Source of the DNA: Macrostomum lignano
Lineage: Eukaryota
Direction of reading: 5' to 3'
Assembly: GCA_002269645.1 (NCBI GenBank)
Contig: NIVC01001148.1
Span: 1 to 64,000 of the forward strand
Length of the DNA stretch: 64,000 bases
Of the stretch, positions 2,666 through 10,594 are shown piece after piece. The notes under the pieces were generated by a model. The model was given only the letters and a program-made list of their open reading frames with translations, did not search any database and was not told the DNA's origin. How positions within the stretch are numbered: position 1 is the first letter of the stretch; each line of letters begins with the position of its first letter. Position numbers and translations under genes: made by a program.

Positions 2666-2773
2666 CCCACCGGACTCTACGTCTGGTCTACGACTTTGTC
2701 GTAGCTCCTACTTGGCGCCGCGTTTTCGTCGCGGAGGGGAAACACGCCCAATAGGGGTGTACGAAGAGCGCCA
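2666..2773 (+). ncRNA. Putative HDV/CPEB3-like self-cleaving ribozyme at the LINE 5' end
   Basis: Hand-folded: P2 TGGCGC 2713-18/GCGCCA 2768-73; P3 GCG 2720-22/CGC 2730-32; L3 TTTTCGT; P1 3' strand GGAGGGG 2733-39; P1.1 AA 2740-41 with L3 TT; P4 ACAC-G-CCC/GGG-GTGT 2742-60; J4/2 A-CGAA with candidate catalytic C2762. Starts at the TSD boundary. Confidence 0.72.
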
Positions 2774-2815
2774 TAACTCGGACACCGTGTCCAGCGAGCG
2801 TCATTGTACTGGAAG

Positions 2816-5800
2816 ATGAGCGCGTATCGGTTTTAACACCGGAGGAGCCAAGTATCCGGCCGCTACCTCCCCGCTCTTCTGTTGCTCAGGGCCGGCGATG
2901 TTGAGACCAACCCGGGGCCTCCTGCTGCCCGTCAGCTGCGGCCGCCCTCTGCGCGGCAAGTTCCTCACCTGCGCGAGATGTAACAGCCGCTTCCATCTGC
3001 AGAGGGAATGCTCCGGGTTGAGTCGTTGGGCCGCGAACAAGGCCGCGGACGCCCAGGAATGGCACTACGCCAATTGCGAGAACGGCCCCACCACCCAGAC
3101 AGACTCGTCGTCCTCTGACCAACCGTCCACCCCTATCTGCCAGCCCACGGAGGAGCAAACCGCTCGCAGGCAAGCCCTGCTCAACTGTATCCGGCAGGAG
3201 AAACCTAAATGCAACCATTGTCGGAAAACGATGCGCGTCAGCTCCACCATCGCCTGCTGCAATGCCTGTGAAGGATTCTTCCATAACGCCTGCACGCAAG
3301 CCACGCGCGACCAGATCAAAAAAGAAATCGGTCGTGGGCTTTGGAGATGCGGTCGCTGCACCGAAGCCGCCTGCCTCCAAGGCCCGCCCTCCCCTGAGGA
3401 CCCTGACCCCACTCCTGTTGGAGGGAGCCACCCGGAAGCTGGGTGGGACTGCAAGAAACCTGAGCTCAAAATTATTCAATGGAATGCGGATGGGATCAGC
3501 AACAAAATGGGGGAGCTTGAGGACCTCGCATCCCGGCTTCAGGCCGACGTTATTGCGGTTCAGGAGTCGAAGCTCACCTCCTTCAACAAAACCCCCCGCA
3601 TCCCGGGCTTCAGCACCATCCGCAAGGACCATAAAACTGCCCGCTGCGACCCGAACGTTAAAGGCGGCGGCCTGCTCTTCTTTTCCGGCAAGGCATTCCG
3701 TTCAATAAACTTCAAGGATGGTCTGGCGGAACCACCGAAGGCTGCAGAATTTCGATCAGCACCTCGGCCAGAAAAAAACTTGTCGTCTCCAACATCTACC
3801 GCCCCCCCATCCGGCGCGTGGAAGGCGAAGATCACCGTGAGCACCCCAGTGTCGATTCCTGGCTCAGATGCTTCCACAGGGAAATTCTGCTTGGTGACCT
3901 CAACCTCCACCACACTGCCTGGGGCAGCGATCCCAATCAAGGACCTGAAGGTGCAGCAAAGCTCAGTGCCTGTTCGACTGGTGCAACTCCGTGGACTACC
4001 GCATCCTGAACTCAGGGGAACACACCTGCGTTGACAGGCGCACCGGACGGACTAGTGCTCCCGATCTCACCATCGCTAGTCAATCAGTGGCCGACCTCTG
4101 TAAATGGCAACCGCTCACCGAGTTTGGCTCCGATCACCAACCCATCCTGGTGACAGTCCGGGAATCCCGGGAAACCCTGAGCACTGCGCCTCGCTTCAGC
4201 TGGTCTCGGAAAAAAGCGGACTGGACCGCTTACCAGACCCTGCTCTCCGAGGACGCCGACCACCTCAATGGCGGCTCCATCAAGAAACAGATTGCCAGGC
4301 TCAGCTCGGGCATGCTTAAAGCAGCCAAAGCTGCTATCCCGCTCAAAAAGTTTCTGCCAAAAACAAGCCATACTGGGATGAAGAATTTACTGAACTTCGC
4401 GACACTCGGAACCGGCTTAGGGAATCTGGCGCCCATCCTGGCGAGTGGCTCGAAAAAAGTCACGAACTGTCCAAACTCTGTGCCGAAAAGAAAGCCGAAT
4501 TCTGGAAGGAGTACATCAACAAAATGTCCGACTCTGCCGACCCAAAACAAGTCTGGAGGACTGTCAAGTGCCTCAGCAACGGCAAACAACAAGATCCTCC
4601 CAACGAATCTCTCGTTGTTGATGGTCGAGACCTGCGCACGGACAAGGAAAAGGCTAACGCCTTTGGCCGCTATTACGAAAACATCAGCACTCTGAAACAC
4701 TCGGCGGTGGACCGCAAGGTCAAAGTGGCCACGTCCCGTCGCCTGGCTCATTACTCCACAGACGACGACCTTTACTGCCGTGACTTCACCCCTAAAGAGC
4801 TGAGACGGGCCATTGGCAAACTTGACCCCAGCAAAAATGTGGTCCCGCCGAAATCGAAGCTGCCTTCTTCATCTACCTGCCGGACTCTTGGATGACGGCC
4901 TGGCTGGCCGTCTTCAACCGTTGCTGGCACACCGGACACTGTCCTGGAGTCAGGCCGTCCGAGTCTGGAAAAAGGCCGTTATCGTCCCCCTGCTAAAGGA
5001 CGGAAAGGACCCCAAAGACCGCGGTAGCTACAGGCCTGTCAGCCTCACCTCCATCTGCGGGAAGATCCTCGAACGGCTAGCTTATCCTTGATCGCCTCTA
5101 TCGCTGGCTCGAGCGCCACAACATCATTCAGGCCTGGCAAGCCGGTTTTCGTAGTCGTGGCTGTGAAGAGCAAATCGCACGCCTCGTTCAGTCAATTCAA
5201 GATGGATGGGAGAAACGCCCGCACTTGAAAACTGTGGCCATCCTCATTGACTGCTCTCGCGCCTTCGACCGTGTTTGGCGCGCTTGCCTTATTGGTCGCA
5301 TGATGGACGAAGGCGTCCCTGCCTGTATGGTGCGCTGGTTCACCAGCTTCCTCGAAGGCAGGCAGATCGCTGTGCGGGTCGGCTCCTCGCTTGGGAAATG
5401 GCGCAGACTGAGGGAAGGCGTCCCCCAGGGCGCCGTCAGCTCGCCTGCCCTCTTCCTCATCTATGTTAACAAGTGGTCCGGTCACAACGTGCCTCTCGTC
5501 GACTACAGTGGCTATGCAGATGATCTCGCCCTCTGGAGCACGGGCCGGAACCTCCCGGAAATCCAGGCTCGCCTCCAATCCGCCCTGCAGCTCGTCGAGG
5601 AATGGGCCGCTCATCTACGCATCGACATCAACCTTTCTAAAACTGAGGGATGCCTCTTCTCTCGGGACAGATCCGACCGTCAACGCAACCTCAGCCTCAC
5701 CCTCCGGGGCCAACAGATTCCTTTCAAGCAGGAGATTAAGTTTCTCGGAATCTGGATTGACCAAGGTCTGCTATTCGAAAAGCAAACTGACTCCGTCCGG

Positions 5801-7130
5801 GAGAAAATGCTTCGCCGAGCTGCCATCCTTCGTGCCCTAGCCCACCGTGAATGGGGCTGGGATCGCAAGCTGCTGCTGCGAGTCTACTGGGCTCTTGTCG
5901 AATCCGTCGTGTGGCATGCCGCCGCGGCCTGGACGCCCTGGCTATCTGCGACCCGTCTCAACGCCATCGACCGTGCCTAGCGTGAGGCCCTCCGGGTTGT
6001 CACTGATCTCCCCCGCTCGACACCGGTAGAGGCCATCTACTTTGAGTCGGGAATCCTTCCTATCAGCCTCGAAGCGCGCCGAAGATCGCTGCTTGCGGTT
6101 GAGAAGGCGCTCCGCAGACCTCCCGGCGACCCCTTCCGGCAGCTTTGCGAACGCCGCCAGGACACCCGGCTTTCTGCCAACCGAGGCCTCCGCGAAAAAG
6201 CTAGACGCATCACCGATGAGCTCCTTGGTGGACACCGTCTAGCCAACAGCCACATCCGGCTCCCACCCTGGAATTCGTTGGCCGACGCCGGAGTGCGCAT
6301 GTTCAACAAGCTGCTGTTCGAGCCCATTGAAACCGACGCCGCCCAGGCGGGTCCAAGCCACCGCGACCGCACGCTGCCCGAACGCCGCCACTTACTTCAC
6401 CGACGGATCCGTCTCTGGTGGCGTTGAAAACGGAGGTGCAGCCTGGATTCTCCTGAGCCAGGACGGCTCCATCAGCCGGCGCGGGCGCGTGGCCGCGGGC
6501 CGCTGGTGCAGCCCTCGGCCTTCCTTTGAGGCCGAACTTATCGCCATCTTCCAGGCTCTAAGCGATATCATTGCCAATGCCCCGAAAGAGGCTGCAATTC
6601 TCACCGACAGCCAGAGCGCTATCGCGGTCCTGCAAGCTGATCGCCCAACCATCAACCCGCTCGTCGAGAACGTTAAGGAACGCCTTATCATCGCCGCCCG
6701 TCTTTCTAAGATCATCCTGCAGTGGGTGCCCGGGTACGCCGGAATCCCCGGAAATGAACTGGTGGATGCCGAGGCCAAACTAGCGGCCACGCTGCCTCAG
6801 GAGCATGTCGGCACCACCCTGGATTCGGCTAGGGCCCGCATCCGACGGGTTGTTAACTATTCGCCCAACATGACAGGCCACCTGCTCGAGGTCTATGGCC
6901 AAAAGATTACGACGCATGAGGGCCCTCGCAGGCAACACAGGTCCTAGTCTCGCAGGTCCGCGCCGGCCACTGTCCTGCATCGATCTACTACCGCGACCGC
7001 ACCGGCATTGATGTCGGGGCCGGCAACTGCCGTCTCTGCGCGGAAGAGGTAGATCAATTCAAACTTTTCAACTGCCCGGCCCTGGACGTCCAACGCCGTA
7101 CTCACGGCATTACCGAAATGTGTCAACTCG
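2816..7130 (+). pseudogene. Disrupted single polyprotein ORF of the Ingi-like LINE: 2A - PHD - PHD - APE - RT - RNase H - zinc knuckle
   Basis: Consecutive ORF fragments 2898-4034, 3991-4695, 4524-4895, 4813-5091, 5225-5980, 6327-6947 join into one domain order through frameshifts and stops. PHD-like motifs: CGRP..CARC..FH..C..WHYANC and CNHC..CCNAC..FHNAC..WRCGRC. Confidence 0.88.
2837..2920 (+). other. 2A (StopGo/ribosome-skipping) peptide HRRSQVSGRYLPALLLLRAGDVETNPG|P
   Basis: Exact D(V/I)ExNPGP consensus: GAT GTT GAG ACC AAC CCG GGG CCT at 2897-2920, preceded by a hydrophobic LLLL run. In frame with ATG 2816, with a TAA at 2834 in this copy. Not visible in the supplied ORF track because the frame shifts just downstream. 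Confidence 0.85.
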
Positions 7131-7362
7131 TTCGCGCCGACGTGGTGGCGCTTCTCCTAGGGGCCATCGGTTGGTGTCCCCTTTAGGAGAGGCTCACAGC
7201 ATACAACAACAATAACGTCACCAGTAATGCAAAAACCAACTATATTGAGATCATTGTCTAGCAATTTGACGATCATTATTCAAATTTTTAATGTAGAACA
7301 ATCCATTACTACAAGCAATACATTGTCTGCAGGATCGTCAAATAGAAAAACAATGCAAAGAA

Positions 7363-8680: not shown

Positions 8681-10594
8681 CTATTCTGAGTCGATGCAAA
8701 CTAACGATTTAAGAAGCGTTCCCTCGGGTAGTCGAGCGCGGCCGTTAAGAAAAGAGAGTTCAACCACGACCAAGCAACCAGTGACATTGCCACCAACCCG
8801 CTGGATAAGGCGAACAGCAGCAGCCATGGTGCCGCCTAGAGCTACTAGGTCGTCAACCAGCATGACTTGGGCACCGGGTGGAACTGCATTGGCCTGGATT
8901 TCGAAGCGATCCTGCCCGTACTCCTTGGTATAGCTCTCAGATTCAACTCGACCGGGTAGTTTTCCAGCCTTACGGATCGGTGCGAAGCCGACACCAAGGC
9001 GCTGGGCAATGCAGGGTCCAAACAAAAAGCCGCGCGACTCTAGACCAACGACAAGATCCACCTGAGGCAAGCCCTGCAACTCAGGAAGCAGTATGGGAAT
9101 CAATTATCAACAAGATAAAAATGAGCAGTTTCTAGATCTTTCAATTATTTGGAAAACCTGCACTCGATTTTGATCGCTCTGTGATAAGTGGCACCACATG
9201 CTACAAACAAATACTGAGGACTTCTGGAATAACCCTCATAGTCTGAAGATCGAAATCAAATGAAGCCAATATTGTGTAATCACATGCTTCTAATCTTTTT
9301 TGTCAATTTTGTACATCCTTTACGTGATTCGATGGCTCATTTTATGCGGGAAAGCTGATTTGCATCAAAATTACTTGGCAGCCAAGCAATTCTTTAAACG
9401 TTCCACAGCACGAGCGTATAAGCTGACAGTGACTGTTATATTAATGAAAGTCTTCTGCATGCTGCCCATACGTACGCCTAGTCAGTCTTAGATCAAGCAA
9501 TTTTTAGAGCTACTTTAATCAGTGTCATAGGAGCGTAAGAATTACAATGATAGTGGAAAATATCGAGGAAAAATAGAAGTAAGCATGTACCTTGGCAATA
9601 TCGACCATAGAATCGATTGTATCAGCAAAGATAGACGGCGATGCCAGAATTCCCATAATATCTCTACAAATTTGTTTGAAGGTAATAAAAAATTGGCAAT
9701 TCCTGGATACAATCTATTACTTGCTTATAATCCATAGAAATAAAGACTTTCCGTGACAATATTTGCGTTCTCCGGGATTTTATTTGGTAATATTCAATAA
9801 TATCCCGTAAAGTCTTTATGTCAATGGTTTATACCTGGTTTATATAGTTGAAGCCTTAGGCCCTCGTGATTTATACAAATAGCGCCCTCAAAAGGCATGT
9901 TTAATCTGATACATAAAACATAGACAATATTTTACGGGATATTATTGAATGTTGCCAAATGAAATCCCGGAGAACGCAAATAATGCCCGGAAAATCTTAT
10001 TATGAAATCAGGTTTATTCACTTGCAGTAGTTGCGGTTCGTCATGGTAAGATTGTGCAAGGGTTGCTCGTTGTAAGAAGAAAAGAAAAGAAAGGAATTTT
10101 TAACACAGACTAGCTAATTGTAAAAGCCAACGCATTTTGTTGTCACACGTCACGCGTTTCGACATCTTTACGGCTCATTTATCACAAACACAACCAGATA
10201 TATTAAATACAATAGAATTATTAATTATCAAAAACACAAGCTCTAAGGTCAGTTCAACCTAGTCCAGTTTAAACAAAATCAATAGTCAAATTAGTCATGT
10301 TCACAAAGAACGACAACGGAAGATACACTCAAGGACTTCTCACAACTGAGTTGATGCTCAGCTCCACTGCTTGGAAGTTAAACGAACCCTGAAGATGTCT
10401 CGTGGTAAGACAACCAGCATATCAGAATTATTCGCCACAAGAAGACGCAATGATACCAGCGCGATCGACGATCGAAAAATAAAGGGATTTAGTATCAAGA
10501 CTCACTTGAAGACAATGCCAGGTTTTGGAAAGTCCGGATAGTCTACTAAGGCCGACTTGATCCGTTGCAATCGAGCCTCTTGTTCAGCAGACAT
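8681..10594 (-). CDS. APRT: Adenine phosphoribosyltransferase, 3 exons (10594-10506, 9663-9591, 9073-8681), 184 aa
   Basis: Exon 1 MSAEQEARLQRIKSALVDYPDFPKPGIVF(K), exon 2 DIMGILASPSIFADTIDSMVDIAK, exon 3 GLPQVDLVVGLESRGFLFG..IRKAGKLPG..EYG..VDDLVALGGT. GT-AG sites and phases (2, 0) are consistent. Confidence 0.95.
9735..10003. mobile_element. MITE/foldback in APRT intron 1
   Basis: About 90-bp imperfect inverted arms: TTTGCGTTCTCCGGGATTT..TTCAATAATATCCCGTAAA and its reverse complement at about 9930-9980. Confidence 0.6.

Follow-up and report, generated by a model that had tools for sequence, protein, structure and literature searches.

LINE-encoded 2A peptides lie 40-80 residues from the start of the ORF in six clades, Ingi among them (Odon et al. 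2013, PMC3708506), and some 2As in clades other than Ingi precede a PHD finger (PMC3708506). The 2A of Ingi-1_AC gave more than 97% skipping in lysate (PMC3708506). Ingi elements are further marked by a single ORF without an ORF1 (PMC3708506), by a 5' self-cleaving ribozyme together with the N-terminal 2A (PMC5786205, PMC3708506) and by RNase H, which separates them from Vingi (PMC13708176). Proposals for L1Tc comprise an internal promoter and an IRES (PMC3185411, PMC3383444); the available text of these two papers and of PMC3708506 mentions no read-through from host sequence for this element. Two questions are left open in what is available of PMC3708506 and PMC3894237, namely how cap-less, self-cut LINE RNAs are translated and why the 2A sits 40-80 residues from the start.

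The LINE studied here lies in the window, the whole 64,000-nucleotide stretch of Macrostomum lignano DNA that was analysed (contig NIVC01001148.1, positions 1 to 64,000); all features of the element are on the + strand. A decayed full-length element with a single ORF occupies 2666-7214 and is bounded by a 12-bp target-site duplication, with the identical 12-mer at 2654 (2654-2665) and 7215 (7215-7226). The family frame (2667-7183) takes in a Cys/His-rich region (2930-3359), an APE endonuclease that is frameshifted in this copy (3474-4146), a reverse transcriptase (RT, 5087-5758) and an RNase H (6381-6788), and is followed by the stop codon (7184-7186), a short 3' UTR and a (CAA)3 tail (7204-7212). 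Within the Cys/His-rich region a Pfam PHD match at 3210-3359 scored under the curated cut-off, and a second PHD-similar finger directly behind the 2A was read by eye. As is typical of the Ingi clade, the family has a single ORF and no ORF1, with APE, RT and RNase H all present and, by structure and motif, a predicted 5' ribozyme and an N-terminal 2A. On this architecture the element is provisionally classed as Ingi-like; neither the protein-search matches, of which the nearest named ones carry the label Macrostomum lignano, nor the RT tree, built with a quick method, contained a labelled L1Tc/ingi reference. The window copy is dead and lies outside any ORF. It carries 13 indels relative to the family majority and has a TGA four codons upstream of the host-element junction. 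It is flanked by a galactosyltransferase gene (747-2244, - strand) and a phosphoribosyltransferase (APRT-like) exon (8681-9103, - strand), and the galactosyltransferase open frame starts about 420 bp from the element on the opposite strand. A look-up listed no RNA data set containing this stretch, a result with no bearing on whether it is expressed.

A class A 2A/StopGo peptide, RYLPALLLLRAGDVETNPGP, is encoded at 2861-2920, with GDVETNPG/P at 2894-2920 and the core DVETNPG/P at 2897-2920; skipping is predicted between Gly (2915-2917) and Pro (2918-2920). The motif D(V/I)ExNPGP occurs once across the six frames of the window and in none of 2,000 base shuffles of the element. The hexapeptide upstream of the core, LLLRAG, is by eye like that of the LLLLSG-like 2A group named in PMC12846837, and Leu was found at -13/-12 in 15 of 23 families. 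In the family the 2A lies inside an open frame that continues downstream, but in the window copy this frame is lost through an 8-nt loss. Among 23 families selected by the motif, pS was 0.82 and pN 0.13 in the 2A core, compared with 0.71 and 0.72 in the leader. Codons of all four kinds were in use for both the Pro and the Gly residues, and the Pro after Gly was kept in 22 of these families. Choosing families by the motif lowers pN, so a separate set of 30 loci was chosen by APE alone. In this set 21 loci had D(V/I)ExNPG, three had a near form and six were without it, five of these six also lacking the PHD region. A canonical 2A was present in 16 of 190 database homologues; an APE-start pattern had overlooked many proteins and the resulting count of 6/25 was set aside. 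The 2A motif is genuine and is selected at the level of the protein.

Skipping at the window-family 2A is predicted, with similar tested peptides as the prior. In the available data of PMC13405545, peptides ending AGDVETNPGP were skipping in 7 of 13 cases, gave fall-off only in 2 and were non-skipping in 4, and both of two LRAGDVE peptides were classed 'skipping, reduced'; the window peptide itself is absent from the tested set in that part of the source. The motif had been put forward as a new natural 2A, which does not hold. An identical 15-residue core, LLLLRAGDVETNPGP, is already row A10968 of a supplementary table of PMC12338488, labelled Macrostomum and with activity given as N/A, and a sister-family core is catalogued there as A7201. 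With N-terminal 2As also published for the Ingi clade (PMC3708506), the 2A itself is a further member of known biology and, because its core is already catalogued, of little added value as a tool. Sister families B and D (L021-L024, L029, L045), and others, have a hydrophobic stretch ahead of the 2A, which in B and D is signal-like. In the window LINE family this stretch was lost via compensating indels, with frame and 2A retained.

The original prediction placed the motif in frame with an ATG at 2816, masked by a TAA (2834-2836) and by a shift of frame directly behind NPGP. This describes the window's letters correctly but is not the layout of the element. In an alignment of 13 sequences from five insertion sites, nine of them from four sites other than the window's, position 2817 was G in 9/9 other-site copies. 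The ATG thus stems from a G>T private to the window insertion, which opens a six-codon frame (2816-2836) and also creates a TGA (2817-2819) in the true frame. A one-base loss at 2859/2860, an error or private mutation confined to this contig, aligns the ATG with the 2A frame; an extra C at 2860 was present in all 12 other sequences, including three other versions of the window insertion, and contigs identical to the window over 2758-2861 carry the extra C next. The TAA is no masking mutation, being present in 13/13 sequences and lying outside the true frame. Behind NPGP the frame changes through an 8-nt loss (2926/2927) that is common to the versions of the window insertion and absent in 9/9 other-site copies, where the 8 additional bases join the 2A to the PHD region. 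The ATG 2816 frame is an artefact of decay.

The family copies likewise give no support to a released peptide of about 34 residues, as had been proposed; the family has an in-frame ATG at 2751, and its frame extends without a stop to base 1. This start codon site (2751-2753) reads ATA in the window copy and ATG in 8/8 other-site copies covering it. It lies in the 2A frame, in the P4 loop of the predicted ribozyme and 57 residues ahead of the Gly; an ATG at this position was not found in the sister families. The prediction was right on the type and setting of the motif: the LINE is APE-type with a single ORF, it carries its class A 2A N-terminally, and a predicted HDV-like ribozyme precedes the 2A. 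The family consensus, suggested as a check on whether ATG, 2A and PHD form one open frame, has the 2A in frame with PHD-APE-RT-RNase H; ATG 2816 is not part of that frame.

The predicted HDV-like ribozyme (2666-2773) comprises a P1 split by two hairpins, P2, P3/L3, P1.1 and P4, with a putative catalytic C at 2762. In the modelled fold P1, P2, P3, P1.1 and P4 form the nested double pseudoknot of HDV-like ribozymes, and the predicted cut falls just upstream of 2666. P1 opens with the element's first base, 2666, directly behind the target duplication, as in L1Tc (PMC3185411). Over 14 sequences representing five families, 92.8% of cells were paired, compared with 41-51% with slid partners, the fold having been drawn by hand from the same 14 sequences on which it was scored. 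Compensatory changes were found in P1.1, P2, P4 and both inserted hairpins, and the putative catalytic C was present in J4/2 in 13/14 rows. Covariation was 0.287 against 0.143 in shuffled alignments, whilst the number of covarying pairs was not above shuffles (63/500). An Rfam search gave no HDV-type match at E <= 10, for which the inserted hairpins may account. Single-sequence folding was not significant (z -1.3), as expected for pseudoknots. The element's 5' ribozyme is modelled as HDV-like, with self-cleavage predicted. Behind it, several families share a small conserved hairpin and short motif (2774-2792, hairpin 2780-2792), in which the in-frame codon 2787-2789 is GTG or GCG in the window family, ATG in family D and ACG or CCG in family B.

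Ribozyme-bearing sequence was also found in other arrangements. Loci L037, L038, L042 and L014 are internally deleted derivatives retaining the ribozyme and, in most of them, the 2A, and resemble bipartite non-autonomous LINEs. At L099 and L206 elements are inserted in tandem or nested fashion, within the repeat tail or the 5' portion of a second element of this clade, and at L015/L028 (G000:C521, 228,080-228,410) two 5' fragments that carry a ribozyme and come from different families point towards each other less than 300 bp apart.

The predicted ribozyme sequence is stop-free in the 2A frame too. Taking the majority of 11 copies from five insertion groups, the frame is one ORF of 1,500 codons (2667-7183) containing both 2A and RT. 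No stop interrupted the 2A frame over the entire leader in 17 of 20 families (other frames, 1 and 7) and over the first 108 nt in 24 of 28 (12 and 7), in a sample in which families are related and non-independent, some loci were chosen for long frames and junctions were set by pattern. Stop-free families include ones without an in-frame ATG and ones with an ATG solely behind the ribozyme. Between target repeat and P3 lie 12 to 66 nt, a multiple of three in 15 of 20 determinations, or 11 of 13 distinct values; the exceptions were the lineage of the window family (56 nt, a difference compensated further downstream) and a single doubtful determination. Junction-to-Gly length ranged from 153 to 297 nt across families, which lie on a deep RT tree (made by the quick method) among elements of other origin. 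The element's predicted first base falls at codon position 3 in the window family and at codon position 2 in the L111 family, which weakly suggests that the frame follows the target rather than the cleaved end. Two related families (L189-L193, L119-L121) have other targets without CAR, and their 5' frame is still open in most copies.

A CAA/CAG flank was found in 67 of 102 distinct 5' regions (35 families). Read in the 2A frame, this CAR flank encodes polyQ in 47 of the 67 regions and, by majority, in 19 of 28 families. At the 3' side, used as a control, the Gln phase was found in 2 of 9 families. The 20 non-Gln regions and the nine families without a Gln majority include several damaged copies, though not all are damaged. 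The P value of 2e-4 for the Gln phase is too small because the families are related. Outside this genome, a metagenome scan gave 80 loci and 18 motif hits with one clear CAG flank (L238), which is in Ser phase; a separate metagenome scan for relatives was empty.

Since the frame both persists across the ribozyme and is in phase with the target, we infer, as the simplest reading, that ribosomes arrive from upstream. On uncleaved RNA they would continue out of upstream ORFs into the element, whose 2A would free the enzyme, much as in a gene trap but by natural means, a reading to which we assign a probability of roughly 0.55. The original prediction had instead joined ribozyme and 2A in a cap-independent cassette. 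The frame evidence points to entry upstream of the ribozyme over such a cassette, and this entry requires uncleaved RNA.

Cap-independent entry on self-cleaved RNA is possible, though on balance unlikely. The ribozyme or the hairpin behind it would recruit ribosomes, translation would start at ATG 2751 or codon 2787, and the 2A would remove a leader of 45-57 residues. This fits the in-frame ATG 2751 of 8/8 other-site copies and, right behind the ribozyme, the ATG of family D and the near-cognate codon of family B. An IRES has been proposed for L1Tc (PMC3383444, PMC3185411) and Ruminski 2011 is cited for ribozyme-linked initiation, both in line with such entry. However, the position of the ATG varies between families, and cap-independent entry offers no reason for an open frame upstream of the start (24/28) and leaves the three-nt length steps of the ribozyme and the Gln phase unexplained.

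We consider it improbable that the 2A serves mainly as a dimmer, with stalling and fall-off cutting enzyme output and leader release secondary, a role that would fit either entry route. Such a role was proposed in PMC3708506, and in the available data of a 2026 preprint (PMC13405545) 59% of tested ORF2p-linked 2A-like peptides lowered protein level, the two LRAGDVE peptides with their 'skipping, reduced' class being in line with this. It leaves the 5' frame lock unexplained, however, and the Pro after Gly is retained in 22/23 families, as continued translation needs. Still harder to credit is a ribozyme that goes untranslated and a frame lock that follows incidentally from common ancestry, GC-rich structured RNA and nicking in a fixed register. 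The families are indeed related, GC-rich RNA is poor in stops and family B is open in all three frames, but stops are present in the other two frames of the same RNA, junction-to-Gly length varies from 153 to 297 nt over a deep RT tree and the 3' side lacks such a phase. A start at ATG 2816 with a 34-residue peptide ending at the 2A, which holds for the window letters taken alone, has practically no chance of being the element's layout, having already been refuted by the copy alignment (ATG absent in 9/9 other-site copies, one-base loss absent in 12/12 sequences, TAA 2834 in 13/13).

The read-through reading can be widened to the ribozyme LINE clade, whose members would act as gene traps. They would target CAG/CAA in Gln phase, carry a translatable ribozyme, borrow promoter, cap and start codon from host polyQ genes such as a heat-shock gene, release the enzyme by the 2A and use cleavage as the switch from message to template; we regard this wider reading as having about an even chance. 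On the read-through reading the endonuclease would nick CAR repeats in a fixed register, and translation of the small number of copies in expressed polyQ exons would take place on capped host co-transcripts that escape self-cleavage. Ribosomes would translate host N-terminus, polyQ, ribozyme and leader in succession. The skip at Gly/Pro would release the host stump, and the enzyme, PHD-APE-RT-RNase H, would begin at Pro. Later self-cleavage would supply the exact 5' end of the copying template. In the window family its own ATG 2751 may offer a second entry.

In three copies the LINE is joined in frame to a host-side domain, which is an sHSP, an Shg1 domain or a BED finger. At L117 (G000:C921, ~236,900-242,500) the polyQ linker of an sHSP gene with two domains contains an intact LINE ORF in frame. 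This gene belongs to a multicopy family with 39 matches, of which 7/8 fetched paralogs were empty and intact, and the L117 insertion is a candidate heat-inducible source copy. At L116/L221 (G000:C221, ~575,000-580,400) an intact LINE lies in a polyQ tract in exon 2 of an Shg1-domain gene, and the database protein P0007 is a fused Shg1-LINE model. Two empty alleles of this site are present in G000 and DNA run X11 shows the empty allele. The Shg1-gene intron was spliced in 3/3 RNA-type runs and not in the DNA run; in two runs the spliced host contigs run on into the empty allele. RNA pieces 369-426 (X4) and 1-421 (X6) extend less than 31 letters past the host-element junction and were not counted as bridging. 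The third copy, L141, has the LINE behind a BED finger, in frame. At L213, L202, L111 and L194 the upstream Gln frame is coding-like, resuming past the element in L213, L202 and L111; none of these four upstream frames had a Pfam match. No copy of the window LINE family was placed inside a host gene, and no empty homologue could be recognised for an exon-like stretch ahead of L037.

Most insertions, by contrast with these fusions, are not in ORFs. Upstream frames of at least 60 non-repeat codons were found for 14/46 Gln frames against 19/92 control frames (medians 24.5 and 20), so that no excess of long upstream ORFs was found between these 46 and 92 frames. A clear Pfam domain was present in 2/17 upstream frames against 1/23 in the control (desaturase exon, then intronic repeat). 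With few long upstream frames and a low Pfam yield, most insertions, the window copy included, are outside ORFs, in non-coding repeats. This weighs against the read-through reading, as do the regions and families out of Gln phase, the two families with other targets, the spliced host contigs that run on into the empty allele, the Ser phase of the one outside relative with a clear CAG flank (L238), the window family's possession of its own in-frame ATG and the similar peptides that were non-skipping or gave fall-off only.

The closest described systems are L1Tc/ingi of trypanosomes, which share with the window LINE a single ORF, a predicted first-base ribozyme cut and a near-N-terminal 2A (PMC3185411, PMC3383444, PMC3708506). 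The target duplication is also alike, at 12 bp in the window LINE and 11-12 nt in L1Tc. Unlike in L1Tc/ingi, however, the window LINE has a frame that is open through the ribozyme, PHD fingers behind the 2A and a P1 with two inserted hairpins, and in its clade the frame is in phase with CAA/CAG targets. The 2As of metazoan APE-type LINEs likewise have GD(V/I)ExNPGP N-terminally in a single ORF, in some cases followed by a PHD (PMC3708506). There the leader is treated as the element's own N-terminus, down-regulation or replacement of ORF1 is proposed, and the available text makes no link to target phase. The catalogued class A 2As (Rao et al. 2025, PMC12338488) include the same core as predictions that, in the available table, come without activity values or genomic context. 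The 2A-like signal sequences of sea-urchin NLRs (PMC4981915) resemble those of sister families B and D and others in having a hydrophobic stretch before the 2A, whereas this stretch is absent in the window LINE family.

A polyQ-phase or gene-trap reading of LINEs was not found in our literature search, which covered papers other than Repbase reports. A frame locked to the target repeat would be one answer to both questions left open for these elements, and intact natural copies exist. If the reading is true, the ribozyme would be under protein-coding constraint and transposon output would be set by the host gene struck. Engineered 2A gene-trap cassettes enter a host ORF in frame and have their cargo freed by the 2A. 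By comparison, the LINE is natural, would enter via an exonic repeat and not a splice acceptor, and carries a predicted ribozyme.
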